Shown here in pieces: positions 1,724 through 14,479 of a stretch of DNA of 64,000 bases. The position numbers were made by a program, and so were the translations under genes. The stretch lies in contig OY843588.1 of assembly GCA_963692935.1 (NCBI GenBank), forward strand, positions 1,699,989 through 1,763,988, given 5' to 3'. Origin of the DNA: Nitrospirales bacterium (GTDB taxonomy: Bacteria; Nitrospirota; Nitrospiria; Nitrospirales; UBA8639). The notes under the pieces were generated by a model, which saw only the letters and a list, made by a program, of their open reading frames with translations, was not told where the DNA came from and did not search any database. Positions within the stretch are counted from its first letter, which is position 1. The number at the start of each line of letters is the position of its first letter.

Positions 1724-4372
1724 TCACGCCGCGCCGGTTTTCTCCATCAACTGCTGGCGCATGTCCATTCCATCGCGCTTTTTTTCCACGATAAGAAACA
1801 GTCCCTTGCCGCCACTCTGCCGCTCCCACAACTCACCGATTGTCCGCTTCTCACTGGTGTCAGCGCCACTCGCCATGAGCGCCCCCTTGTATTCCACAAC
1901 AAAACAACGCTCGTCCTCCAACAGCGCAACAAAGTCGGGATAGAACCTGTCAGTCGCGGTCGGTAGCCAGAACGAAGCACTATGACGTGCCACATTGCGA
2001 ATCCAGAACTTCAGACCTGGCAGACTGTCGAGAGCCTGAGCGCACAGACATTCCTCGCCGTCATCCGCACCGTCGAAAGCGGGAACGCAACCGGCTCCCA
2101 GGAAATGTTTGCTCGGCTTCCAGCGTCCACCATAGCGCCGTTGATCCTGATACATGCCATCACGGAACGTGAAAGCGTGGGCATGGTCAAAGGACACTTC
2201 CACCCTGGCCGCCGATTCAAAAAGACGGCTTTGATAGACATTCTTGCGTTCCTGTGAGCGAATGGCATCAATTTTATCCCTGATCCCACGCGCGAGCAGA
2301 AACTTGCAACGCATGAGCGTGGCCATGTTCATCCCGCGCACGTCGAGCAGGTAGCCAACAAGATCCCGGAGCCACCGAAGCAGTTCACCCTGGTGAAGAT
2401 CAATCTGGCGCACCTGTCGGTCGAGCCACAAGACAAGATTCTCCGATGTCCAACCCTCAACGTGAACATTGAACTCCAGTTGTTCCTCTTCTCCGGCACG
2501 CTGATAATCGACTTGACGACCATCCAGATCAATTTCAAAGTGGCGGGCCGTCTCACGAATCGCAAACTCTTTTTCATCCATTTTCCATGAATGGTGAAGC
2601 AACGACCAGTCATGGGACTCCACAAACGCAACAGAGTCGGCAAAGTCCATGACACCCTGAATCTCCGCCATGAGACGTGGAACAACAAACACGTTGCCCC
2701 GTCCGGCAGGCGACAACTGTCCCCGGTTTTTGACCCGATATTGTTTGACCTCCTCGGTGAACCCCGACCGCTCGTTTTCCGGCAATGCCACGTGAATCTT
2801 CTGCATCACCTCGTCGTTGAGTGGCCCTGTTACCGCAATTTCAATCTTCCCGTCACCAGTATCCCGTATTGTCACGCCATCAGATGTCGTCTTATGCAGA
2901 TCGGACGCAACAGCATCGTTCGCCGCGATTGTGTAAGTGAGCACAGGTTGCTGTTCCACCGTATCCCCAAACAGATCCCTCTGGTCGTCAATCCGTTTGA
3001 CGTTGTCGCGCGCCTCTTCCTCCTCAAAACCCATGGCGACCAGCTTGTCGACCAGTGCCCGTGCGGTCTCACCAGAATCCGGTTCGGACATGAAGGCATA
3101 GGCTTTATTCAAGTCCGCAATCCCGCGCCGCCTGGCATAGGGCATCCGCAACACACGGCCCAGAAGCTGCTCCACATCCACCGCGCTACGAATACGCGAG
3201 ACGGAGCAGAACACATACGCAAAAGAGCAATCCCACCCCTCTTTCAACGCCTCAACCGTGATGATGTATTCAATCCCGCATCGGGGATCAAAAAGGTCAA
3301 TGCCATCCAGTTCACGTTGAGCGCCGGTTGCAATGGCGATTTTTTCCTCCGGGATCCGCCCGTCCTCCATCAGGTGCGTCTTCAGCACATTGACCGTCAC
3401 CTCCTGATTTTTCGGCTGCGCCTGGAAAAGGACAATCGGGCGGAGATGATCGGGATCGTTCTTCGCCTTCTCCGCAAGCGAGGCGCGCGCGGCAATGGCG
3501 CCACTCACCGCCCCCTGCCAGGAATCATGCTCGGACAGCATGATCGGCAGCTTGATCATTTCCGCCGTCTTCAGCTCCTGCGCCGTAACACTGTGCAGAA
3601 TGTTATTGAGCCGGTGACCCTTCGTATCGCGCGGCGTGGCGGTGAGTTCGATAATCGCGCACGGGTTCACCCGCGCCTGCATCTCCCGTGTCAGATCCGT
3701 GACCGCATTGTGCGCTTCATCCACGATCATCAGCGGGCGGTGGATATGCAGCAGATTGGCGAAAGAAAACTTGACCTTGCCGTTTTCCATTTTTTCAAGG
3801 CCCGGCGCGGTCGCGGGCAACGTGGAGAAATGCGGTTCCATCTCCTCGTTGTGGGCATAGACCTTACGGCCTTCGGTGCCTGTCACCCGCAACGTCTGAA
3901 TGGTGCCAACCACGACGCAACAGGAGTCACGGATATCCTGCGGGCGGATCTGTGTGAAGTCCTTGATGTCAAACACCCGCACCCGACCGGCAAACGCCTC
4001 ATCCAACACCTGACGGTAGGGATGGCGCGTATTCCTGAGCGCCTCAACCGTCTGCCTGCGGATGGTGTTGGACGGCACCAGCCACACGACCATGGGATAG
4101 TCCTTTTCAATCCAGGCATCGCGTGCAATGGCAATGGCGTGGGTGCCCAGGATGGTCTTGCCCCCGCCGGTGGGTAGCCGCAGGCAGACATAAGGAACAT
4201 TGGGCAGGGCATCAAGCGGCGTGTAGATCTTCCCGTAATGTCCAAGCCGCGCGGCCTGCTCCGGTTCCGAGGTAATCGTTGTGTAGGCGTTCCCCGGTCC
4301 GACCATACGGGCCTCTTCCAGGAAGCGGCGAAGGACCGACAGGGTATCGGCCTGATATTGTTTCAGTTTCAT
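1724..4372 (-). CDS. res: Type III restriction enzyme Res subunit (SF2 helicase plus C-terminal PD-(D/E)xK nuclease)
   Basis: 882 aa. Helicase motif I is LPTGGGKT and motif II is IVDEAHN. The C-terminal nuclease-like block reads FYPDFVALL...VVEYKG. The gene starts 4 nt after the mod stop, in the usual mod-res order. Confidence 0.85.
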   Translation of the reverse strand: MKLKQYQADTLSVLRRFLEEARMVGPGNAYTTITSEPEQAARLGHYGKIYTPLDALPNVPYVCLRLPTGGGKTILGTHAIAIARDAWIEKDYPMVVWLVPSNTIRRQTVEALRNTRHPYRQVLDEAFAGRVRVFDIKDFTQIRPQDIRDSCCVVVGTIQTLRVTGTEGRKVYAHNEEMEPHFSTLPATAPGLEKMENGKVKFSFANLLHIHRPLMIVDEAHNAVTDLTREMQARVNPCAIIELTATPRDTKGHRLNNILHSVTAQELKTAEMIKLPIMLSEHDSWQGAVSGAIAARASLAEKAKNDPDHLRPIVLFQAQPKNQEVTVNVLKTHLMEDGRIPEEKIAIATGAQRELDGIDLFDPRCGIEYIITVEALKEGWDCSFAYVFCSVSRIRSAVDVEQLLGRVLRMPYARRRGIADLNKAYAFMSEPDSGETARALVDKLVAMGFEEEEARDNVKRIDDQRDLFGDTVEQQPVLTYTIAANDAVASDLHKTTSDGVTIRDTGDGKIEIAVTGPLNDEVMQKIHVALPENERSGFTEEVKQYRVKNRGQLSPAGRGNVFVVPRLMAEIQGVMDFADSVAFVESHDWSLLHHSWKMDEKEFAIRETARHFEIDLDGRQVDYQRAGEEEQLEFNVHVEGWTSENLVLWLDRQVRQIDLHQGELLRWLRDLVGYLLDVRGMNMATLMRCKFLLARGIRDKIDAIRSQERKNVYQSRLFESAARVEVSFDHAHAFTFRDGMYQDQRRYGGRWKPSKHFLGAGCVPAFDGADDGEECLCAQALDSLPGLKFWIRNVARHSASFWLPTATDRFYPDFVALLEDERCFVVEYKGALMASGADTSEKRTIGELWERQSGGKGLFLIVEKKRDGMDMRQQLMEKTGAA

Positions 4373-4375
4373 CTG

Positions 4376-5917
4376 TCAGGTTCGCGCCTTGATTTCGTAG
4401 GGCGTCTGTTTGAATGTGACCCGTTCACGGGCCAGTGTCGCGGGCATCAGGCGGGACTGTTCGCCATAGACCGTCATCGGGCCATTGAAACCGCGTTGAG
4501 CCTTGGCGGTTTTTTCACGGAGAAGAGCCAGCGTCACACGAGTCAGCACGTTGCCGCCATTCGGCCGCCTGTCGCCGAGGATGCCGTTATACAACAGCGC
4601 GTAGGCACGGCCATCGTGGATGCCAAGCAACGCCGACCGGTTTTTCCCGTTCCACGCATATCCGGTCTCACTGAACCAGACATGCGCGGCCAGCACAGGG
4701 AAACGAATGTCCCGGCAGATGTGGCCTTCTTCATCAAACACCGGCGGGCCAAGACGGTAGAAACGAAACCCGCCGCCACCTTGCCAGCCGATCATTTTGG
4801 AAATGCCGCCCTGTTCGCCGTCAATGACTTTGTTCAAGCGCGGGAGACAATGGGTGACGGTGTGCTCGCCCATTTCAATGCCGATCCAGCGACGTCCCAT
4901 CTTGTGTGCCACGGCGGCGGTGGTGCCGGAGCCGAGGAAGGAGTCGAGGACGAGGTCGCCGGGATTGGTGGCAAGTTGCAGGACGCGCTGGATGAGACGC
5001 TCGGGTTTGGGAGTGGCAAAACCGCTCTCTGCTCCGAATAGAGTATTGTTTTCCTTTTTTGCCTCCTGGTTGTGACCGACTTCTTCATTTGGCCACCAGG
5101 TCCACGCGGTAGTCCCTTCTTTTTCACTCAAAAATTGCTTCATTCGGGGTCTAGCTCTCCCGTTTTTGCCGAACCATATTTGGTTCTTCGCTATTAAATC
5201 TTTGAACGTTGCCTCTGCAATCGCCCAACAACGGCCTTCTGGAGGTTTGTGACTGATGCCACTAGGAACCTTAATTTCGTAGTATTGATCTTGCGTGGCA
5301 TGGCCCGTTTGCCCGGTAAGGTCGACAGACACCCAAGGCCCTCTCAAGTCTTTATCTGGATTCTTGTATTGCTTCTTTTGCTCGCTCGACAATTCCAATT
5401 TATTGAATTTAATTGATTGGCCATCTGTCCCATAAACCAGGATATAGTCCTGCGCCGCACCCAATCTCAACCTGGCGTCCGGGGATGTTCTTTTCTGCCA
5501 AATCACATTTGCCACAAAATTCCTGCGACCAAAAATTTCATCCATAAGCACTTTAAGATAATGCCCTTCATCGTCGTCAATGATGGTCCAGATGGAACCA
5601 TCATCGGCCAGCAGATCACGTAACAACTCCAAGCGTGGATACATCATTTCCAGCCATTGAGTATGCTCCAGGTTGTCATCGTAATGGGGAAAGTCTTTGC
5701 GTGTATTGTAGGGCGGGTCAATAAAAACACACTTCACCCGCCCGGCATAGAACGGCAACAACGACTTCAACGCCTCCAGATTGTCCCCCTGAATCAGCAT
5801 ATTCCCCGCGTACAACTGCCCCGCCGACAAGTCAGGAGCTTCTTCCAGCAGACGATAAGGAACCTTCGACGCAGCACAAAGATCTTCGTCGCGGGTCAAC
5901 CAGTTCAGGGTAGGCAT
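4376..5917 (-). CDS. mod: Type III Mod DNA methyltransferase (N6-adenine/N4-cytosine, beta-class order)
   Basis: 513 aa. The catalytic motif FIDPPYNT precedes the SAM motif VLDSFLGSGTTAAVAHKMGRRWIGIE. The start overlaps the stop of the upstream pentapeptide gene at 5917. Confidence 0.88.
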   Translation of the reverse strand: MPTLNWLTRDEDLCAASKVPYRLLEEAPDLSAGQLYAGNMLIQGDNLEALKSLLPFYAGRVKCVFIDPPYNTRKDFPHYDDNLEHTQWLEMMYPRLELLRDLLADDGSIWTIIDDDEGHYLKVLMDEIFGRRNFVANVIWQKRTSPDARLRLGAAQDYILVYGTDGQSIKFNKLELSSEQKKQYKNPDKDLRGPWVSVDLTGQTGHATQDQYYEIKVPSGISHKPPEGRCWAIAEATFKDLIAKNQIWFGKNGRARPRMKQFLSEKEGTTAWTWWPNEEVGHNQEAKKENNTLFGAESGFATPKPERLIQRVLQLATNPGDLVLDSFLGSGTTAAVAHKMGRRWIGIEMGEHTVTHCLPRLNKVIDGEQGGISKMIGWQGGGGFRFYRLGPPVFDEEGHICRDIRFPVLAAHVWFSETGYAWNGKNRSALLGIHDGRAYALLYNGILGDRRPNGGNVLTRVTLALLREKTAKAQRGFNGPMTVYGEQSRLMPATLARERVTFKQTPYEIKART

Positions 5918-7275
5918 CAGCTATCATTCTCCATTGGAACCTCCGACATGGCCTGTTCATATTCAACAATCCATCGTTCGGCCTCTTCGCTGGTGTATTT
6001 CCCCGTAACGGCACCACAGTTTTCAGGAAGACCTTTCCGGCCTTCCGGTCCAATATGCGGTTCCAGTTCACTCCTCAACTTGTTTGCCTTTTCATCGGAC
6101 AAGTCTTTGACAAAAACATCCACATCTCCCTGGCTTAATCCACCCTCGAAAACCACCTCGGACAAGTCATCCTCTGTGTCACAAAAACTGTTCATGTGAT
6201 CTTCAAAAGGCGTAAGGGATAGCAAACCATGATTCCCAGCACCGCGCAGATCCGCACGAGAAAGATCTGCCGCCTGCATCTGTGCTCCTTGGAGGCCAGC
6301 GCCTTGCAAATGTGCCCCGCGAAGATCAGCACCTTGCAGGTGTGCCAAGCGAAGATCAGCACCTTGCAAATGTGCCCCGCGAAGATCAGCACCTTGCAGG
6401 TGTGCCAAGCGAAGATCAGCACCTTGCAGGTGTGCCAAGCGAAGCCCAGTGCCTTGCAGGTGTGCCAAGCGAAGCTCAGCACCTTGCAGGCGTGCCACGT
6501 TCAGATAAGCACCTTGCAGGTGTGCCAAGCGAAGCTTAGCGCCTTGCAGGTGTGCCCTGAGAAGATTAGCGTTCTCCAAGTAAGCCCCAAGTAGAACAGC
6601 TTTACCTAAACGCGCGTCCATAAGGTCCGCTCCATTCATCCAGCTTCCCCGTAAGTCAGGGTAGCATTCTCTGAATACCTTATGTTCCTGCACGAAAAGC
6701 AGGTACAACAGGCTTTGCACTTCTTCCGAAGGCTTTGTCTTGTTTGTTTCTTGATACTTGCCTTCTCCCGTCGTCCTGCGGACATGAGCACAAAGAATGT
6801 CCAGTGCCGTCTTACGCAATTTGGAGGTATCGTCAGCCAGATGGAACAGTTCGTAGGCACCACCCAAACGCACAGAGACCGATTCATGCCCCAGATGTTC
6901 AATGGCGTTTTTCAGTCGTTCCTGCCGATGTCCCTCTTCTGTTGCTTCTGTGGCCTTGGCCTGTGCGTTTGCGGCACATTCCATCGCTTTCGCACGCTTA
7001 TGAGATGCCAAGGCTTGCAGGGCAAGCAGGATACCACCCATGCCAAGCCCCAGAAATTTCAGGACCTCGTATTTTGGGGATACGAATCCCTTTAAGCCCA
7101 AGTGCAAAGCAATCCACTCCGGCTTTTCGCACCACACGACAACCCCAAAAACCCCAACCAGAAAGACGAGCAGGACGACAAGGATGACCGTAGCAATTAT
7201 GTCAAGCCAGTCCCCCCACGTTAATCGTTCTTGCTTTTCAGTAGTCACAATGGCCCTTTTCAGCCCTGTTTCCAC
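5917..7275 (-). CDS. Membrane-anchored pentapeptide-repeat protein (2 predicted TM helices, helical linker, about 22 pentapeptide repeats)
   Basis: 452 aa. Hydrophobic stretches are IIATVILVVLLVFLVGVFGVVVW and LKFLGLGMGGILLALQAL. The linker motif VRLGGAYELFHLA is followed by tandem AHLQGADLR(L/G) decamers. The stop overlaps the mod start. Confidence 0.8.
   Translation of the reverse strand: METGLKRAIVTTEKQERLTWGDWLDIIATVILVVLLVFLVGVFGVVVWCEKPEWIALHLGLKGFVSPKYEVLKFLGLGMGGILLALQALASHKRAKAMECAANAQAKATEATEEGHRQERLKNAIEHLGHESVSVRLGGAYELFHLADDTSKLRKTALDILCAHVRRTTGEGKYQETNKTKPSEEVQSLLYLLFVQEHKVFRECYPDLRGSWMNGADLMDARLGKAVLLGAYLENANLLRAHLQGAKLRLAHLQGAYLNVARLQGAELRLAHLQGTGLRLAHLQGADLRLAHLQGADLRGAHLQGADLRLAHLQGADLRGAHLQGAGLQGAQMQAADLSRADLRGAGNHGLLSLTPFEDHMNSFCDTEDDLSEVVFEGGLSQGDVDVFVKDLSDEKANKLRSELEPHIGPEGRKGLPENCGAVTGKYTSEEAERWIVEYEQAMSEVPMENDS
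6301..6570. repeat. Nine tandem 30-bp units inside the pentapeptide gene, including a near-perfect 60-bp duplication
   Basis: The units follow the pattern (a/g)ccttgca(a/g)(a/g)tgtgcc..gcgaag.t.agc at 6301, 6331, 6361 and onward to 6541. Positions 6302-6360 are identical to 6362-6420. The repeats are in frame, and each unit encodes two pentapeptide repeats. Confidence 0.95.
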
Positions 7276-7484
7276 AGCTCCACGGCTTCAAGCAACCCTC
7301 GCAGATGTTCGTCGTGCCCGGCTACCCGCAACAGATCGGATAAATCAAATTTCCCGCGCAACTGATACACCGTCGGTCGTTTGTCGTATTCCGGCCAAAC
7401 CTTCCGCAACAACCTTATCGCCTCCTCCGCTTGAATTGGCCGACGCTCATTTCCTGGATGTAGCCGAAACAAAAGACCTTCCAA
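7260..7484 (-). CDS. Small hypothetical protein (74 aa), possibly the C-terminal remnant of a partner gene of the upstream ATPase
   Basis: The only possible start is TTG, with no in-frame ATG. It lies 19 nt downstream of the ATPase stop and overlaps the pentapeptide start by 16 nt. The amino-acid composition is protein-like (MEGLLFRLHPGNERRPIQAEEAIRLLRKVWPEYDK...). Confidence 0.35.
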   Translation of the reverse strand: MEGLLFRLHPGNERRPIQAEEAIRLLRKVWPEYDKRPTVYQLRGKFDLSDLLRVAGHDEHLRGLLEAVELWKQG

Positions 7485-7503
7485 GTCGCCCGCGCATGGT
7501 CAC

Positions 7504-8691
7504 TCAACCAATCTTCGGGACACCGCCGAGCACACCGAGGCGGTACTTGGGGTACAGTCTGGTGTCCCGACGCAAACCGCTTATATCCTGAACGCCGTGT
7601 ACGCGCGTCCCACCGTCCTCCCCTTTCTCGACGATAAAAAGCTCTTCCTTCTCAAGGTCGTCGAGCAAGCCAACATGGTGAGACGTCACGAAAAGCTGTG
7701 CGTTGTGGGGATTGGTCTCTTGAGACTGGAACTTGTGAAGAATCTCACCGACAATATCCACATGAAGGTTGCCGTCAATTTCATCAAAGACAGCGACGCT
7801 ACCTGTGTCCAGTGCACTGGATAATTGAGGCAACAGATGGAACAGACGTTCGGTGCCGCGGGATTCCAAGAGCAAAGGGATTGACACGTCGAGTCCATGA
7901 TGATCGAACAAGACCAGTTCCCCGTCTTTGCCATCCAGTATTTGCACATCATGTATCCCTAGATCGCCACGCTGGATGTCATGTTTGACCCGCTCTCTAA
8001 TGGCAGGCTTACTCTCTAATAGATCTATCACCATTTTGGTCGGAGGCGTCCACGGTTCGCCGTAGGTAACATTGGCGGCCACAAGAAATGCTTTAAGGCT
8101 TTGCACAATCTGCATAGCCAGAGGCACGTTGAGCATGGCAAGTGTGGCAATGACCGAGACATCATCCCGAACCGCCTTCAGTCGGTCGTCTCTTAATTTG
8201 ATCCCGAATTCGCGGGAAACGTAGATAGGCTCCCCTGGCATACCGCGATAGAACAGACGTCGCTGGCGGCCTTTGGGAAAATGAAACAGGGCTTCAGACA
8301 TTATCTGTTCACCATGTGCGGAAAGTTCATAGCGAAACAAATCCACTGTCTCACCCGGTGCCAACCAGTCTGCTTCAATCTCCACGCAAAAGCGCGTCGG
8401 TTCATCCCGTGACTTTTTCGAGAAGAAAGGCAATATAGTTTTGACGGGTGTTGCGTTTTCCATCCACGGAGTGCAGAGAACGCGGACGAGTATAACCAAC
8501 GCATGAAGCAACATTGTCTTGCCCGACCCGTTCGGCCCCATTAGCACAACGACTGAAGGAAGTCTGATATCCGGCTTGGCCACGCTCTGCCGGAAGCGTG
8601 GCAGATCGGGGGCAGTTTTCGGAATCCGAAGATCGAGGACAGCCTCTTCGCGTATTGAACAAAAGTTAGATACTGAAAATGAATGAATCAT
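7504..8691 (-). CDS. ABC-like AAA ATPase (AAA_21/AAA_15-type, as in OLD/Septu/PARIS-class defence ATPases)
   Basis: 395 aa. Walker A is MGPNGSGKT, the signature-like block is ESRGTERLFHL, Walker B is VAVFDEIDGNLH, and the H-loop is FVTSHH. No fused nuclease domain is visible. Confidence 0.75.
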   Translation of the reverse strand: MIHSFSVSNFCSIREEAVLDLRIPKTAPDLPRFRQSVAKPDIRLPSVVVLMGPNGSGKTMLLHALVILVRVLCTPWMENATPVKTILPFFSKKSRDEPTRFCVEIEADWLAPGETVDLFRYELSAHGEQIMSEALFHFPKGRQRRLFYRGMPGEPIYVSREFGIKLRDDRLKAVRDDVSVIATLAMLNVPLAMQIVQSLKAFLVAANVTYGEPWTPPTKMVIDLLESKPAIRERVKHDIQRGDLGIHDVQILDGKDGELVLFDHHGLDVSIPLLLESRGTERLFHLLPQLSSALDTGSVAVFDEIDGNLHVDIVGEILHKFQSQETNPHNAQLFVTSHHVGLLDDLEKEELFIVEKGEDGGTRVHGVQDISGLRRDTRLYPKYRLGVLGGVPKIG

Positions 8692-8697
8692 ATCGTG

Positions 8698-8726
8698 ATT
8701 GTAACGTTATTCTGTTGAGATGGCAA
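8698..8726 (-). promoter_or_regulatory. Sigma70-like promoter for the ATPase-to-res unit, implying a leaderless or very short-leader mRNA
   Basis: The minus strand reads TTGCCA, then 17 nt, then TACAAT, then cacgat, then ATG at 8691. No Shine-Dalgarno sequence lies between the -10 box and the ATG. Confidence 0.45.
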
Positions 8727-8924
8727 TATATTGCAAATTTTAGAATGAATACTTAAACACACACCGCTCGTTCGTGTATAGATACAAAATTTCCCTGCCT
8801 TGCCATTCCTGCGAAATTATCTGTTCCTAGGCCCGACCAGCGGCAGGAAATTTGTATGAGGATATTCTTTGACTTGGAAAAGAGAGAAGGAAAATGACGG
8901 GTCGAGGGGAGGGGGATCGGAAAA

Positions 8925-9062
8925 GGAATGACAGATTGCAATACCCCTCACTCCGTCATTCCCGCAACAGCGAGAGCCCAGAATCGCACCATACCGGTAC
9001 TGGAGAGTTTGGGGAAAAGGACAGATGACAAAGCCTGTATTCCTGCTTTGCACAGGAATGAC
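8925..9062. repeat. Cluster of short hairpin-forming repeats sharing a GGAATGAC/GTCATTCC core (REP-like)
   Basis: ggaatgac (8925-8932) pairs with gtcattcc (8955-8962). attcctg (9039-9045) pairs with caggaat (9053-9059), followed by ggaatgac at 9055-9062. Related copies lie at 42976-42996 and 44993-45009. Confidence 0.5.
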
Positions 9063-9165
9063 GGGCGGGGGTGTGCGAACTTGGCATATCTCAAAGAAGG
9101 GTTACTTCATTTCGTAAATTTTTGCGAGATTGAACAACGATTTCATTCCTGATCCTGGTCACGTT

Positions 9166-10086
9166 TTACCCAAACCTACAGCTCGCCCATGCGGCATTTG
9201 TCCATGTCTTCACTCTATCTAATACCTTCTTATTGATGTTGTCACTGAAATCAACAATCCGACAGCGATCAAACAGCAAGCCTCCCTCATCGACGGTTTT
9301 ATGCCAACGATCTTCGGGCAAAGCCTCTGCAACAAAAAACATGCGAACAGGGGTAAGAGGGATGGGGGAATGCATCCAGTTTGCACAAAATGAGTCAGGC
9401 CGCATATGGGTGAGTGCGTCCTCGTAGTTGGTCCCAGTCTTACACTGACCAAAAGCAATGAGTTTCCCTGCCTTGCCATCGGTAAAGCGTTTCCAAACGA
9501 CAACATCCAATTTCCCGTCCTTCGGATTCGATGATGTCTCGAAGTACTTCTCAAAACGGCCACCCTCTTTCAGTCGCTTGCAAAGGTTGTTGACCTTATG
9601 TGGAAAACTCGGCATCCCAGCAGCGGTGCCAAACACAAGGCTCTCGGCACGATTACCAAAATATTCTCGAGCTACTTCTGCAGCGAGTTCTTCGAAAAGT
9701 AGCGTGCCATCAATACCCGCGTGAAGTCTGTTGGTGCCCATATCCAGCCGGGTTGCCAGGAGCAGATATTTGTAAATGATGTATCTACGGTTTGCGGGAG
9801 CATGATCGACGTAGAGCGAGTATCCCTGATCGCCAACCACAAACGGATAACCCTCCCTACACGCTTTCTCGCGTTTCTCAATCTCCCCGTACGCTTCGTG
9901 CACTTCGCCAACCTGTGGATCTTCTTCTGGCACACCGCCAGCGTAGTCGTTGTCTTCAAGCCGACTGATATCCTGGGACAAAGCAGTCACCGACGTACCA
10001 TTGTCCCGCCAACAAACCAGCTCGGCAAAATCGCCAACTTCGTGAGCAGGTGCACGAACACTTGGTGTCCCAGGCCATTTGAACAT
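9166..10086 (-). CDS. Predicted PD-(D/E)xK (Mrr-type) nuclease-fold protein of unknown family
   Basis: 306 aa. The core reads FEELAAEVAREYFG (E132/E133) ... KDGKLDVVVWK (D194) ... FGQCKTG (Q214-x-K216), with the spacing and hydrophobic pattern typical of restriction-endonuclease-like folds. The start overlaps the stop of the ParB-like gene by 1 nt. Confidence 0.55.
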   Translation of the reverse strand: MFKWPGTPSVRAPAHEVGDFAELVCWRDNGTSVTALSQDISRLEDNDYAGGVPEEDPQVGEVHEAYGEIEKREKACREGYPFVVGDQGYSLYVDHAPANRRYIIYKYLLLATRLDMGTNRLHAGIDGTLLFEELAAEVAREYFGNRAESLVFGTAAGMPSFPHKVNNLCKRLKEGGRFEKYFETSSNPKDGKLDVVVWKRFTDGKAGKLIAFGQCKTGTNYEDALTHMRPDSFCANWMHSPIPLTPVRMFFVAEALPEDRWHKTVDEGGLLFDRCRIVDFSDNINKKVLDRVKTWTNAAWASCRFG

Positions 10087-11192
10087 CAGTTGTCTTCTGC
10101 AATACGCTGTTTTTTCCCAGGATTGTGCTTGCGTTCCATCTCCCTGTAGAGATCATCCGCAAGATTTGCCACCGTGCCAGCGATTTTTAACGTTTCCCCG
10201 GAATTGTCATAGCCTGTGGAAAGCATGCCCCGTGCCGTCTGAAGTTGTTGTTTCGCATTAAAGAGCGAGTCCTCGAAAACCGCGGATGACGGGCGGGTCA
10301 CCTCAAGAGCAGCGTCAAGGGTATCTCCAGCACGTAGGGTAGCAATGGCTTCTTTGCTGGCTACGACAGCATCAAGATACCGAAGATGCGGGTTTTGTTT
10401 CTGAACAACGGGAAGTTTATCATCTCGCTTGCTACCATACAGCCAGAGGCAAAGCTCACCGAGTTCTTTTTTCTTCTCTGGAGGGACAGGTGCCCGATCA
10501 TCTTCAGTATCTGATTGCAAACCGATAAAGGCACTGATGCCAGAGTAGGTGACGCCCGTGTACAGATGGGAGAACGAGAAATGCTTGTTCCAGCGATCGT
10601 CGCGATTGAATACCTTCAGTTTTTCTGCTTGCTCAATGATCATCAGACCTTGGAACAGTCTCTGGACGGTCTTGTGAGTATCGCCAATCTGATTCGCGAT
10701 ATCTTCAAGGCTGACATCGTAGTTGGTGTGCACCTCGGCGATGTAGCGAGCTTTAGCGTAACTGCTCCATTTGGCCGGGCCGTTCACATGCTTGAAACCG
10801 AGATAACGCCAGACACGTTTACGCTTTTCAAGCACAGCGGGAAGTGTTTGGAGTGCTTCCCTGGCTTCCCTATTGATACGAGGAACACCTGCCCGTTGGA
10901 CTTCGGTAAGTAGGGCTGGGTCCAGAAGTACTTTGACCGCGGCAAGACGACGATTCCCTTCAATAACAATGTTCTTTCCATCCTCCTGCTCAACGATCAC
11001 GGGTTCGTGGCGAAAGAACCCGCTGGTTCCGATGGACAGCACCAGTTCTTTTACATCCATCGCATCCCATAGAATTTTTATCACTTCTTTATCTGTTGCG
11101 CTGTCGGACAGGTTAAATTCCGGCAGTCTGGGATTCTTGAGATCGAATGCCAGATCCGAAACTTTCATCTCCGTGATTTTGGGGACATTCAT
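10086..11192 (-). CDS. ParB N-terminal (ParB/Srx) domain protein with a central HTH-like segment
   Basis: 368 aa. The N-terminus MKVSDLAFDLKNPRL is followed by IVIEGNRRLAAVKVL, which resembles the ParB GxxRxxA box. An HTH-like stretch reads SLEDIANQIGDTHKTVQRL. The gene overlaps the MTase stop by 4 nt. Confidence 0.65.
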   Translation of the reverse strand: MNVPKITEMKVSDLAFDLKNPRLPEFNLSDSATDKEVIKILWDAMDVKELVLSIGTSGFFRHEPVIVEQEDGKNIVIEGNRRLAAVKVLLDPALLTEVQRAGVPRINREAREALQTLPAVLEKRKRVWRYLGFKHVNGPAKWSSYAKARYIAEVHTNYDVSLEDIANQIGDTHKTVQRLFQGLMIIEQAEKLKVFNRDDRWNKHFSFSHLYTGVTYSGISAFIGLQSDTEDDRAPVPPEKKKELGELCLWLYGSKRDDKLPVVQKQNPHLRYLDAVVASKEAIATLRAGDTLDAALEVTRPSSAVFEDSLFNAKQQLQTARGMLSTGYDNSGETLKIAGTVANLADDLYREMERKHNPGKKQRIAEDN

Positions 11193-12043
11193 CGTCTTCT
11201 CCTTACAGGGAGTTGTACATAAGACGGCGTGATCAGGAGCTCCTGTGTCTGTCGCTTTCGTTGGAAGCTGTACTGGATTGGGAGACGGGAGATGGCACAG
11301 GTCGTATACATCTTTTCAATAGGGGGAACATCATCGTAAGACATGACCCATTTGAGTATGCGGTATCGTCGTACATAGCAAGCCAGTTGCCGGTGGTCAC
11401 AATCCTCGTAGAAATCCCGATAGAGGCGATTCCCGTTTGAATGATACGGAGGGTCAAGATATACAAAGGCTTGTTTCCTGCCACGCCCACGGGGCAGTTC
11501 CTTAACCAAGAACTTAATGGCGTCTTCATTAGATATGTGAATTTGCTTTCGTTTTTGCGCGATCATGCTGACTCGCTTGGCGAGGGCCTTCCGATAAAAA
11601 CGAGCATTTATTTTCCATTCCCCTGTTTGCCTGTAGCCCCCAATGGGAGCAGATCCAACCAGACCCCCCGAATGATTGCAACGATTCAGGTAGAAGGTGG
11701 AGAAGCCAAGTTCAAAGGGCTTACTGGCGTCACCACGTTCGCTGACACACAATTGCCTCTTCCATTCCGCAACACTCACTGGAACCGACAGAATCTTTTT
11801 TGCAAACCGATCTGATTCATCAAGAACAGACCGCCAGAAAGTCGTGATACGAGGATTGTAGTCGTTCAGATAAATCTCCGAGACGACACCTTTGCGAAGA
11901 AGGTGTAACGCGGCACCGGCCCCACCAGCAAACGGCTCATAGTAGGTGCAACCGGAGAGTTTGTTCTGTTCGATTATCTGAGCAAGGAAATTTGCAATTG
12001 ACGACTTTCCCCCCGGATACCTGAGTGGGCTGTCATATTGCAT
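11189..12043 (-). CDS. Dam-like N6-adenine DNA methyltransferase (D12 class, alpha order)
   Basis: 284 aa. Diagnostic blocks are LRYPGGKS, the SAM motif EPFAGGAG, and the catalytic motif YLDPPY. A GAGG ribosome-binding site lies about 11 nt upstream of the ATG. Confidence 0.88.
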   Translation of the reverse strand: MQYDSPLRYPGGKSSIANFLAQIIEQNKLSGCTYYEPFAGGAGAALHLLRKGVVSEIYLNDYNPRITTFWRSVLDESDRFAKKILSVPVSVAEWKRQLCVSERGDASKPFELGFSTFYLNRCNHSGGLVGSAPIGGYRQTGEWKINARFYRKALAKRVSMIAQKRKQIHISNEDAIKFLVKELPRGRGRKQAFVYLDPPYHSNGNRLYRDFYEDCDHRQLACYVRRYRILKWVMSYDDVPPIEKMYTTCAISRLPIQYSFQRKRQTQELLITPSYVQLPVRRRR

Positions 12044-12241: not shown

Positions 12242-13114
12242 TCACCCCTCCAGCGCCAGCCTCACCGTCTCCCCGATCTCCGCGGGATTGCGGGCGACGC
12301 GCACGCCGGCGGCTTCGAGGGCGGCGATTTTTTCTTTGGCCGTGCCTTTCCCACCGGTAATAATCGCCCCCGCATGACCCATGCGGCGACCTGGAGGCGC
12401 GGTCAGACCCGCGATGAAGGCGATGACCGGTTTGGTCATTTCCCGTTTGATAAACGTCGCGGCGTGTTCTTCGGCGTCGCCGCCAATCTCCCCGATCATG
12501 ACCACGGCTTTCGTTTCATCATCATGTTCAAACATGTGCAACAGATCAATGTAACTCGTGCCAATGACGGGATCGCCGCCAATCCCCACACAGGTCGTTT
12601 CGCCAAGCCCCAGATTCGTCAACTGATTCACCGCTTCATAGGTGAGGGTCCCACTGCGGGAAATCACGCCGACCTTGCCTTTCTGATGAATGAAGCCCGG
12701 CATGATGCCGATCTTGCACTCGCCGGCCGTGATAATCCCCGGACAGTTAGGGCCAATCAGCCGGGTCTGCGTACTCGACAACGCACGTGTCACCCGCACC
12801 ATGTCGTTGACGGGAATCCCTTCCGTGATGCACACCACCAGCCAGATCCCCGCATTCGCGGCTTCAAGAATCGCATCGGCGGCAAAGAGCGGCGGCACAA
12901 AGATCAATGACGTGGTGGCCTCCGTCTTGCGCACGGCTTCACGCACCGTGTTAAACACGGGAATCCCTTCGACCTCCTGACCGGCCTTGCCGGGCGTCAC
13001 ACCGGCGACCACGTGCGTGCCGTAGGCTTTGCACTGCGTCGCATGGAAGGACCCTTCTTTCCCCGTTATCCCCTGCACCACCACCCGCGTTGCTGTATTC
13101 ACCAGGATGCTCAC
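12242..13114 (-). CDS. sucD: Succinyl-CoA synthetase alpha subunit
   Basis: 290 aa. It starts [24 protein letters not shown] and contains GPNCPGII. The active-site His region reads [14 protein letters not shown]. Confidence 0.95.
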
Positions 13115-13183
13115 ATTCCGTTCCTTCCCTTGATGGTTCCACGCTCGCCGCCCGTCACCGGATACACCGGCACGTCGCGCGGG

Positions 13184-14368
13184 TCAGCCCTTCCGTTTTT
13201 TACCCTTCATGGCCACAATTTTCTGCGCGGCTTCCCACAGATCCGTCGCCACGTCAACGCGCACCCCCGACTCGGCCAGCAATGTCCGCCCTTCCTCCGC
13301 ATTGGTCCCCTGCAGACGAACCACCACAGGCAGGGTGATGCCCACTTCCTTTGCGGCCTCAATGACGCCATGGGCAATACGCTCGCACCGCACAATGCCC
13401 CCGAAAATGTTGATGAAAATTCCTTTGACCTTTCTGTCCTTGAGCAGAATGCGCAAACCGGCGGCCACGGTTTCTTTGGTCGCGCCTCCCCCAACGTCCA
13501 GAAAGTTGGCCGGTTCCGCACCGGCCAGCTTGATCACGTCCATCGTGGCCATGGCCAACCCCGCCCCGTTCACCATGCAGCCAATGTCTCCATCCAGTTT
13601 CACGTAATTGAGATTGTGGTTGCCGGCCTCGATTTCAAGCGGCTCCTCTTCGTGCAGATCACGAAACGCCTGAATGTCCGGGTGCTTGCACAACGCATTG
13701 TCATCAAACGAGACCTTGCCATCGAGTGCGACAAGCTGATTCTCCGTGGTGACGACTAACGGATTGATCTCCACCAGTGAGGCGTTCTTTTCCATAAACA
13801 GGCGATAGACATTCTCCAGCAGGGACAGCAACGCCTTCATCACCGTTTTATCCAGCACGGACGCCCCCAGCGCAAAGGCCAGATTGCGCCCGTTATACCC
13901 TTGAAACCCGACGGCGGGATCAATCGCTTCCCTGACGACTTTCTCCGGCGTCCGCTCCGCCACCTCTTCAATCTCCATGCCGCCTTCGGTACTCGCAATG
14001 AATGTTGGCGTCCCCGTTCCCCGATCCACCAGCAGCCCGAGGTACAACTCTTTGGCAATCCCCACGCCTTCCTCAATCAGCAGACGCCGGACTTTTCTGC
14101 CTTTCGGCCCCGTTTGATGCGTCACCAGGGCCTTCCCAAGGAGCGCGCGCGCCAGGGTCGGCACCTCGTCTCTCGTCTGTGTGATTTTGACTCCGCCGGC
14201 TTTGCCCCGTCCCCCGGCATGAATTTGTGCTTTGACGACGTAGACCGATGTGTCCAGCGCGGCGGCCCATTTTTCAGCGACACGCGGTGTCTTCACGGCC
14301 TTGCCCCGTGGCACGGGGATGCCATAGTGCGCAAACAACTCTTTCGCCTGGAATTCGTGGATGTTCAT
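13184..14368 (-). CDS. sucC: Succinyl-CoA synthetase beta subunit (ATP-grasp)
   Basis: The canonical N-terminus MNIHEFQAKELF starts at the ATG at 14368. The ORF track begins 6 codons upstream of that. Confidence 0.93.
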   Translation of the reverse strand: MNIHEFQAKELFAHYGIPVPRGKAVKTPRVAEKWAAALDTSVYVVKAQIHAGGRGKAGGVKITQTRDEVPTLARALLGKALVTHQTGPKGRKVRRLLIEEGVGIAKELYLGLLVDRGTGTPTFIASTEGGMEIEEVAERTPEKVVREAIDPAVGFQGYNGRNLAFALGASVLDKTVMKALLSLLENVYRLFMEKNASLVEINPLVVTTENQLVALDGKVSFDDNALCKHPDIQAFRDLHEEEPLEIEAGNHNLNYVKLDGDIGCMVNGAGLAMATMDVIKLAGAEPANFLDVGGGATKETVAAGLRILLKDRKVKGIFINIFGGIVRCERIAHGVIEAAKEVGITLPVVVRLQGTNAEEGRTLLAESGVRVDVATDLWEAAQKIVAMKGKKRKG

Positions 14369-14479
14369 AATGTTCCCTTCATGCAATGCTTCGCGCTACG
14401 GTCGCCCGGACACCATAAAACCTTATGGGAAAGGGGCATAAAACGTGGCCGACCATGCTGTATCACTTCCCCGCACATT

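Follow-up and report, generated by a model that had tools for sequence, protein, structure and literature searches.

The five consecutive genes considered here lie within a 64,000-nucleotide stretch of the Nitrospirales bacterium assembly GCA_963692935.1 (contig OY843588.1, positions 1,699,989 to 1,763,988; hereafter the window, numbered from its first letter) and comprise an ABC-type ATPase gene, a 74-aa open reading frame (ORF), the gene for a membrane-anchored pentapeptide-repeat protein (PRP), and a Type III restriction-modification (R-M) pair, mod and res. Several described systems resemble parts of this locus. Type III R-M systems such as EcoP15I and EcoPI likewise place mod before res, with DPPY and FxGxG motifs in Mod and an SF2 helicase and PD-ExK motif in Res; biochemically, this type is characterized by ATP-dependent cleavage that needs two unmethylated sites in inverse orientation and by hemimethylation through Mod. 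RloB was named after its location inside an R-M operon (Pfam PF13707 description), and the AbiL and RloA/RloB systems of the OLD/PARIS/Gabija superfamily share with the locus an AbiLi-type ATPase, which in homologous loci is followed directly by an RloB/AbiLii partner. The PrrC anticodon nuclease is kept silent within the EcoprrI Type I operon and is released upon anti-restriction attack; PrrC/EcoprrI and RloC are comparable to the locus in that a restriction operon includes, and is expressed together with, the gene of a suspected suicide-type effector. In DSR1/DSR2, bSEFIR, and the SIR2, TIR, or transmembrane (TM) partners of short pAgo, alternating N-terminal effector heads are joined to a C-terminal, repeat-rich sensor, an organization that the PRP resembles, and a constant sensor body on which TM, SIR2, and TIR heads replace one another is a signature of abortive infection (short pAgo partners, DSR, bSEFIR, CBASS, Thoeris). 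Qnr, MfpA, AlbG, and McbG, which have the same right-handed quadrilateral beta-helix as the PRP, are soluble, topoisomerase-targeting proteins of ∼180-220 aa, and the pentapeptide proteins Qnr and McbG have been proposed as DNA mimics (PMC7261183). AbiL is grouped among the ABC-ATPase + TOPRIM systems, and such pairs are regarded as self-contained (PMC11464382).

The sequence of the window indicates that the five genes very probably represent two juxtaposed defense modules, a decayed AbiL-type pair (module 1; 7260-8726, - strand), made up of the ATPase, a partner remnant, and a promoter, lying before a PRP-mod-res cassette (module 2; 1724-7275, - strand). The best explanation of the locus as a whole, to which we give a probability of roughly 0.6, joins this arrangement to a PRP that would act as an autonomous sensor-effector. 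The five ORFs, all on the - strand, extend from 8691 to 1724, and each junction is tight or overlapping, as the initial annotation had described. The 19-nt gap between the ATPase stop and the TTG of the 74-aa ORF and the 1-nt overlap of PRP and mod (TGATG, at 5917) stand as given there; the 16-nt overlap of the 74-aa ORF with the PRP is valid only with the PRP start at GTG 7275, as use of a second candidate start, GTG 7248 with AAGGG upstream, abolishes it; and the mod-res spacing is 3 nt rather than 4. A single transcript from ∼8691, also proposed at that stage, is plausible, in that intergenic space is lacking and the PRP is left without a separate upstream region; because of this second feature, the AbiL promoter described below probably drives everything downstream in the window, PRP-mod-res included.

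The linkage of the PRP to Type III genes recurs widely. A genome scan recovered 163 PRP relatives, the best 80 of which were taken as loci together with 3 further loci, giving 83 (with approximate frequencies), and the presence of mod and res was scored within the locus neighborhoods adjoining the PRP. A near-full-length mod gene, 57-71% identical to that of the window, is present downstream on the same strand at 39 of the 83 loci, and res, covered over at least 700 aa, occupies this position at 37. Partial mod/res matches only were found at 12 loci, in two of which (L009 and L063) mod is cut by the contig end; no trace of mod or res was present at the remaining 32, a few of which are on short contigs. 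Mod lies within 30 nt of 29 PRP genes, and 23 of these 29 pairs overlap as T(G/A)ATG (TGATG in 13, TAATG in 10), so the recurrence of pentapeptide/TM homologs beside Type III mod genes that the initial annotation had asked about is confirmed. The loci come from Latescibacterota, Nitrospirales, Binatia, Gemmatimonadota, Alpha- and Gammaproteobacteria, and Thermodesulfobacteriota, representing at least six phylum-level groups and several distinct chromosomal contexts; many are recognizably sponge-associated, and sources of related loci, where recognizable, include many marine-sponge metagenomes or bins (MKWU, LXNI, LXNJ, MPMZ; PMC5099237, PMC5649159). The distances of PRP and Mod are correlated (rho 0.37, reached by 4 of 2000 Mantel permutations), compared with 0.38 for Mod and Res. 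Judged from gene order and junctions, module 2 is a conserved PRP-mod-res cassette in which the PRP is predicted to be translationally coupled to mod.

The Type III genes themselves are conventional. Mod (4376-5917, - strand; 513 aa), a beta-class N6-adenine methyltransferase by Pfam and PADLOC, carries its motifs in the order FIDPPYNT (IV, near residue 65) before LGSGTT (I, near residue 330) and matches Pfam N6_N4_Mtase (E = 1.6e-49) and, over residues 1-512, PADLOC MTase_III PDLC03644 (E = 3.6e-181). Res (1724-4372, - strand; 882 aa), assigned from Pfam, PADLOC, and motifs, carries LPTGGGKT and MIVDEAHN as helicase motifs and, toward its C-terminus, YPDF...VVEYK as the PD...ExK motif, with matches to Pfam ResIII (E = 5.1e-14) and, over residues 1-875, to PADLOC REase_III PDLC03650 (E = 3.6e-176). 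The Mod motif order, together with a helicase and PD-(D/E)xK Res encoded downstream of mod, places the pair by sequence in Type III. The operon differs from described Type III systems in being led by a translationally coupled, 452-aa membrane-anchored PRP, for which no described counterpart was found. No paper was found in the literature that links pentapeptide proteins to Type III R-M, to defense islands, or to sponge symbionts and restriction, and no PADLOC model matched the PRP, in line with the earlier suggestion that an architecture including the pentapeptide protein was undescribed; the PRP-led Type III operon thus looks like an undescribed defense gene linkage.

A separate observation on this Mod-Res clade is that its Type III operon is an insertion hotspot (L008, L055, L080, and L083, between mod and res; L005 and L074, upstream of mod; also L012, L023, L036, and L043). 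Between mod and res are found an HD-domain (dGTPase/SAMHD1-like) protein with a 177-aa protein, small toxin-antitoxin-like pairs, and also IS elements; a KAP-family NTPase occurs directly upstream of mod, and at L083 mod is interrupted by a DDE transposase.

The PRP (5917-7275, - strand; 452 aa, GTG start), encoded by the first gene of the cassette, matches Pfam Pentapeptide (E = 1.4e-30) and has more than 2,400 homologs at E ≤ 1e-5, the best 120 of which cover 66-97% of the query at 40-62% identity. Its AlphaFold2 model (pLDDT 91.4) is composed of a helix at residues 20-48 (TM1), a helix at 67-128 (TM2 and stalk), an N-cap at 133-201, a beta-helix at 205-347, and a C-domain at 357-443. The two-TM hairpin (7003-7203, - strand; TM1 residues 25-48, TM2 residues 70-91), delineated from hydropathy, alignments, and the model, has invariant G76, G80, and G81 in TM2, forming a GxxxG or glycine-zipper-like motif, and is followed immediately by KRAKAME, which would place the bulk of the PRP in the cytoplasm. 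The stalk helix, rich in Ala, Gln, Lys, and Glu and of variable length, and the helical N-cap domain together span 6664-7002 (- strand; alignments and model), and the model helices spanning residues 67-201 have pLDDT above 90; the N-cap bears the highly conserved signature RQERLKNAIEHLGHxSxSVRLGGAYELFHLA ... KPSEEVQSLL. The right-handed quadrilateral beta-helix (6235-6663, - strand) contains ∼28 pentapeptide repeats and was assigned from the model and a fold search, in which full-length PRP matched only pentapeptide beta-helices in the PDB by Foldseek (E = 1e-7 to 1e-8). It has a net charge of +4 and a pI of 10.1, the family mean being -0.4 with a standard deviation of 6.3 (a net-charge count rather than a surface calculation), and its length varies from 113 to 278 aa across the family, close relatives differing by multiples of 10 aa. 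At the DNA level, the AHLQGADLRL decapeptide units are encoded by a 30-nt tandem repeat (6297-6570; 84% matches, 9.1 copies), at which repeat number is likely to expand and contract.

The PRP ends in an acidic alpha/beta C-terminal domain (5920-6234, - strand; net charge -17), conserved and family-specific according to the charge count and a C-domain profile search. In 1.84 billion representative proteins the profile recovered 446 clusters, in which the domain is always at the extreme C-terminus; none of the 446 has it fused to Mod or Res. No relative of the C-domain was found in the PDB by sequence profile, or by fold (all E > 3; isolated-domain model pLDDT 70). A phage origin of the PRP was considered and rejected, as no relative was found among 2.9 million viral contigs.

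Several lines of evidence suggest that the PRP is maintained independently of the restriction enzyme. The clearest is locus L042, a Nitrospirales metagenome-assembled genome (OZ242177.1) that is syntenic with the window (SucD 92% and PepP 81% identical): here the intact PRP overlaps at its stop with a 74-aa ORF made up of the first 41 mod codons and unrelated sequence, pepP comes next after this mod remnant, and res is gone, so by comparison with the window the mod-res pair is deleted. Near-identical remnants of the first ∼41 mod codons lie on both sides of the L042 PRP (9569-9805 and 11479-11703) and share the post-breakpoint sequence PWLKNKTMCVFSL; these twin remnants with a common breakpoint suggest that a tandem PRP-mod array once existed and was collapsed by deletion. 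Next to an intact PRP, mod or res remnants also occur at L055, L058, L059, L066, and L076, and among genomes that share a chromosomal context the full cassette is present in some and the PRP alone in others. PRP copies with and without adjacent R-M are interspersed in the tree and are equally conserved (N-cap 0.77 with vs. 0.75 without; C-domain 0.54 vs. 0.49), and tandem PRP paralogs, up to four, occur at 13 loci. Conversely, three free-living lineages (Microvirga, Chelatococcus, and one more) carry mod-res relatives whose Mod is 67-69% identical, and they lack a PRP. The suggestion that the PRP might regulate the Type III enzyme in a dedicated way is therefore not upheld, because the PRP is kept intact without mod-res and close mod-res relatives do without it; rather, the PRP appears to be autonomous, and not a dedicated Type III regulator or subunit. 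As an aside on these relatives, the Chelatococcus loci (L115-L117, 5807-6001) have, where the PRP would otherwise lie upstream of mod, a gene for a 64-aa PhdYeFM-type antitoxin, with its stop overlapping the mod start.

The heads of the PRP family point to what an autonomous protein might do. Among 57 long representatives of the C-domain family, two lack the two-TM head, namely P0366 and P0385. P0366 (L123, 6001-7641) consists of SIR2, N-cap, PRP, and C-domain, with SIR2 recognized by Pfam SIR2_2 (54.2 bits) and by the PADLOC pAgo-associated SIR2 model (E = 6.8e-79), and is encoded two genes upstream, in the same island, of a 406-aa PRP whose stop overlaps mod-res. P0385 (L124, 3441-6083) consists of TPR, SEFIR/TIR, N-cap, PRP, and C-domain, its head matching TIR_2 (82.5 bits) and PADLOC bSEFIR (E = 3.3e-77). 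Both heads are joined to the common body of stalk, N-cap, repeat, and C-domain, so that the family has interchangeable heads on a conserved body, two-TM in most members and SIR2 or TPR+SEFIR/TIR in rare variants. More distant relatives (35-40% identity) have the two TM helices, stalk, N-cap, and repeats and no acidic C-domain; they are plasmid-borne in Rhodococcus (L120, pDJL2), Streptomyces, Anabaena (L121, pANACY.06), and others, a set to which L122 also belongs, and their neighbors are DUF262/HEPN/Dcm, TIR, AbiEii, and integrase genes. The neighbors of the PRP loci themselves are defense or mobilome genes. A search for pentapeptide repeats in the literature on TIR and SIR2 defense domains found no mention of such repeats.

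Based on these features, we propose that the PRP acts alone as a single-protein immune sensor-effector, being neither an enzyme subunit nor a DNA-mimic regulator. Its cytoplasmic N-cap, variable beta-helix, and acidic C-domain would sense an infection cue, and the two-TM hairpin with its glycine-zipper TM2 would serve as the effector, probably damaging or depolarizing the membrane. Co-expression with Type III R-M would make restriction the first layer and abortive infection the back-up. The parts of this proposal differ in strength: that the PRP is a defense protein of the sensor-effector type is, from its domain organization, about an even bet, and that the hairpin is a membrane effector is a tentative assignment, made because SIR2 or SEFIR/TIR NADase-type heads replace the hairpin in relatives. 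Compared with DSR, bSEFIR, and related proteins, the PRP, which is known from sequence, would have a different sensor, composed of N-cap, pentapeptide beta-helix, and acidic C-domain, and is operonic with Type III R-M. A more far-reaching version, which we consider doubtful, is that the family represents widespread immune proteins with a beta-helix sensor and TM, SIR2, or SEFIR heads that are functionally wired to Type III, by guarding or by envelope coupling; if true, the locus would be an envelope-linked, two-layer 'Type III-plus' cassette spread horizontally among sponge symbionts of many phyla.

The remaining evidence concerns module 1. The ATPase (7504-8691, - strand; 395 aa) is an intact AAA_21/ABC-type protein of AbiLi type according to Pfam and PADLOC, matching Pfam AAA_21 at E = 2.2e-18 (67.8 bits, cutoff 27) and, as its best defense-family match, PADLOC AbiLi PDLC02335 at E = 3.9e-60; the PADLOC models for AriA, GajA, and PtuA match far more weakly than AbiLi does, and NCBIfam NF047739 (MADS, MAD3 ATPase) fails at 24.7 bits against a cutoff of 420. 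It has 682 homologs at E ≤ 1e-10, the best 120 of which are 60-71% identical over their full length, and its Walker A (G52-K58), Walker B (D303 E304), and H338 occupy invariant alignment columns. In homologous loci the ATPase is accompanied by a second gene. In 12 of 12 examined loci the ATPase stop is followed directly by a ∼180-aa gene whose C-terminal ∼70 residues are the counterpart of the 74-aa ORF of the window; in tBLASTn searches homology to the 74-aa ORF starts ∼340 nt past the ATPase in 20 of 30 metagenomic ATPase loci. Intact partner genes elsewhere begin 6 nt past the ATPase stop, with the protein starting MRRR..., and full-length partners contain the Toprim-like motifs IFIGxEGxSE and LLDxDR in their N-terminal half and match Pfam RloB PF13707 (up to 37.2 bits, cutoff 31.5) and PADLOC AbiLii (E = 3.7e-10).

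In the window, a vestigial partner start (7447-7497, - strand) is preserved at the same distance, with an ATG at 7497 located 6 nt past the ATPase stop; it reads MRGRLGRSFVSATSRK followed by a stop, a 16-codon stub that is out of frame with the 74-aa ORF (7260-7484, - strand; TTG start). The partner gene has lost ∼340 nt, including both Toprim-like motifs, and the remaining 74 codons, which align with the C-terminal ∼70 residues of the ∼180-aa RloB/AbiLii gene, are in a different frame. The 74-aa ORF is therefore, by this alignment, a pseudogene remnant of a Toprim-like RloB/AbiLii partner, which explains the missing Toprim partner: the position where the initial annotation had seen only a small ORF holds a 5'-deleted Toprim-like pseudogene, and its recommended comparison with DUF4276/RloB-like families proved informative. 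The alignment with full-length partners also led us to reject the 74-aa ORF as a new small protein, and the partner family, RloB/AbiLii rather than AriB, PtuB, or a fused Toprim, to reject an identity as PARIS, Gabija, Septu, or OLD. Thus, the window has the AbiLi ATPase that defines one half of an AbiL system and no adjacent intact AbiLii partner; given the loss of ∼340 nt from the effector gene, the AbiL system in the window is, on sequence grounds, dead. The arrangement also differs from described AbiL and RloA/RloB systems in that the Toprim-like partner is a deleted pseudogene and the adjoining operon is Type III rather than Type I.

Module 1 carries its own promoter (8698-8726, - strand), with a -35 TTGCCA at 8726-8721, a 17-nt spacer, and a -10 TACAAT at 8703-8698. 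This was the top promoter-like site in 10.9 kb, with 10 of 12 matches; however, six such sites were observed there against 7.0 ± 2.5 expected, so the match in a single sequence is not above chance. What makes the promoter convincing, and bears out the sigma70-like promoter noted before the ATPase ATG, is that both its position and its sequence are conserved upstream of homologous ATPase genes, where the hexamers recur with equal spacing and lie equally far from the ATG (L009, L084, L087, L093, and others). The -10 ends 6 nt before the ATG at 8691 in the window and 6-7 nt before it in homologous ATPase loci, which implies a leaderless mRNA. The element is thus very probably a real promoter giving a leaderless mRNA, and as far as its conservation indicates it belongs to the AbiL-type module. 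Within its spacer (window 8704-8720; L009, L084-L097) lies a conserved, partly palindromic element, (C/T)RACG followed by an A/T-rich stretch and CGTTR, a putative operator that may serve autoregulation of the ATPase.

This pair is distributed separately from the PRP and Type III genes. None of 30 other ATPase loci carries a PRP, mod, or res, and the window-type ATPase adjoins the PRP at just one other of the 83 PRP loci, L009. That locus, also from Nitrospirales, is the only other with the gene order of the window; its ATPase is 71% identical, and its partner gene is full length yet frameshifted. Given the 30 ATPase loci in which PRP and Type III genes are missing, genomic distribution marks the ATPase and 74-aa ORF as a separate module and not as part of a conserved five-gene system, contrary to the earlier view of the ATPase as part of an extended Type III system.

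Several observations weigh against the explanation we favor. The conserved coupling and co-inheritance of the PRP with mod-res would fit a physical partnership with the enzyme equally well. The two-TM hairpin is possibly just an anchor, the head variants number only 2 of 57 long representatives, and P0385 comes from a contig of 1x coverage and could be a chimera; the PRP also matches no defense model. The 83 loci are not phylogenetically independent, several sharing a chromosomal context, and since they derive from the best 80 of 163 genome hits the frequencies are approximate. Finally, the ATPase is intact in both the window and L009 although its partner is damaged in both.

The first of these points leads to the alternative that survives best, under which the enzymes of this Type III clade would have a third, accessory component, the PRP, acting as a membrane tether, scaffold, or regulator. 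Its C-domain or beta-helix would bind Mod/Res, and the enzyme would be held at the inner membrane where DNA enters or restrained during establishment. A partnership of this kind would account for stop/start overlaps with mod in 23 of 29 adjacent pairs across phyla, for mod/res or partial matches beside the PRP at 51 of the 83 loci, for the covariation of PRP, Mod, and Res distances, and for a mostly cytoplasmic protein with a conserved, strongly acidic C-domain. However, the PRP remains intact and equally conserved after deletion or decay of mod-res, three free-living lineages with close mod-res relatives have no PRP, no C-domain is fused to Mod or Res, and SIR2 or SEFIR heads make little sense for a tether; we regard this alternative as unlikely.

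Less probable still, by a clear step, is a PrrC-like guard, in which the PRP would be a latent toxin silenced by the Type III enzyme and freed by a phage anti-restriction factor. The PRP is encoded in, and co-translated with, an R-M operon, its head is effector-like with SIR2 and SEFIR alternatives, and AbiL/RloB-type and other Abi modules occur within the same operons. Loss of mod-res should then be lethal, yet it is common, as seen at L042, the five remnant loci, and the 32 loci with no trace (counting adjacent R-M only). PrrC relies on its R-M partner for silencing, whereas the PRP is often kept without R-M, and the protein families are unrelated.

It is very improbable that all five genes form one system, in which the PRP and Type III R-M would be served by the AAA_21 ATPase as their sensor or motor. 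The probable single transcript in the window and the identical gene order at L009 are what such a system would produce, as is the presence of four non-orthologous AAA_21 families upstream of the PRP at ∼15 of 84 loci (the 83 and the window), several with a DUF4276/Toprim-like partner that is sometimes truncated. Nevertheless, the window-type ATPase occurs at 30 loci without PRP or Type III genes, always with its own RloB partner and promoter, most PRP-mod-res cassettes have no ATPase, and ATPase + Toprim pairs are self-contained (PMC11464382). These non-orthologous AAA_21 ATPase genes share the strand of the PRP and immediately precede it (L020, L043, and L051, c18+c92; L025, L057, and L071, c57+DUF4276; L077; L123), and the rest of the flanks seldom contains such genes; insertion into a defense-island hotspot, from which this enrichment would be expected, is the simplest explanation, and a functional link may alternatively be involved. 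Least credible of all is a B-DNA mimic like Qnr and MfpA, an idea raised in the initial annotation and taken here to mean a decoy for phage DNA-binding proteins or a Res inhibitor, since apart from the shared beta-helix fold the charge of the helix (+4, pI 10.1; family -0.4 ± 6.3) and its variable length of 113-278 aa leave no conserved DNA-like charge or length, the Qnr and MfpA NCBIfam scores are far under their cutoffs (30.7 of 240 bits and 51.6 of 360 bits, respectively), and, unlike Qnr, MfpA, AlbG, and McbG, the PRP has 452 aa, two TM helices, a non-acidic helix, and an additional N-cap and C-domain.

Both modules, the decayed AbiL pair and the cassette with its putative autonomous sensor-effector, are part of a variable island (1724-12043) that separates sucD from pepP in this sponge-type Nitrospirales genome and has a G+C content of ∼0.49-0.53 compared with ∼0.59 outside. 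The island is bounded on one side by sucCD (12242-14386) and on the other by pepP, encoding an M24 aminopeptidase (3-1676, - strand, running off the start of the window); a terminator-like site at 1490-1504 was discarded because it falls inside pepP. Scans for tRNA genes and Rfam families gave no matches in positions 1-16 kb of the window. Upstream of the ATPase on the same strand lies a second defense-like operon (9166-12043, - strand) with overlapping junctions, encoding a Dam-like methyltransferase (11189-12043, - strand; PADLOC PD-Lambda-5_B, E = 2.7e-97), a ParB-like protein (10086-11192, - strand; PADLOC PD-Lambda-5_A over the N-terminal half only, E = 5.3e-23), and, as the third gene of this PD-Lambda-5-like operon, a 306-aa protein (9166-10086, - strand) that none of Pfam, NCBIfam, and PADLOC recognizes and whose matches in a PDB sequence search reach no better than E = 0.5. 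This operon may be a three-gene variant of PD-Lambda-5.

These results have implications for the annotation of defense genes and for the PRP family. An apparent orphan ATPase with a novel small ORF turned out to be a decayed AbiL pair, which is a useful caution. If the PRP is a defense protein, it would add a new type of sensor, the pentapeptide beta-helix, to the single-protein abortive-infection systems, and would provide a second well-defined role for pentapeptide-repeat proteins beyond that of Qnr and MfpA. Its coupling to Type III mod offers a tractable system in which first-line restriction and a back-up effector would move together as one mobile cassette. Sponge-associated communities are enriched in R-M systems (PMC5649159, PMC5099237), and the PRP family, with members in at least six phylum-level groups that are still 50-60% identical, represents a clear case of defense-gene sharing in one habitat.

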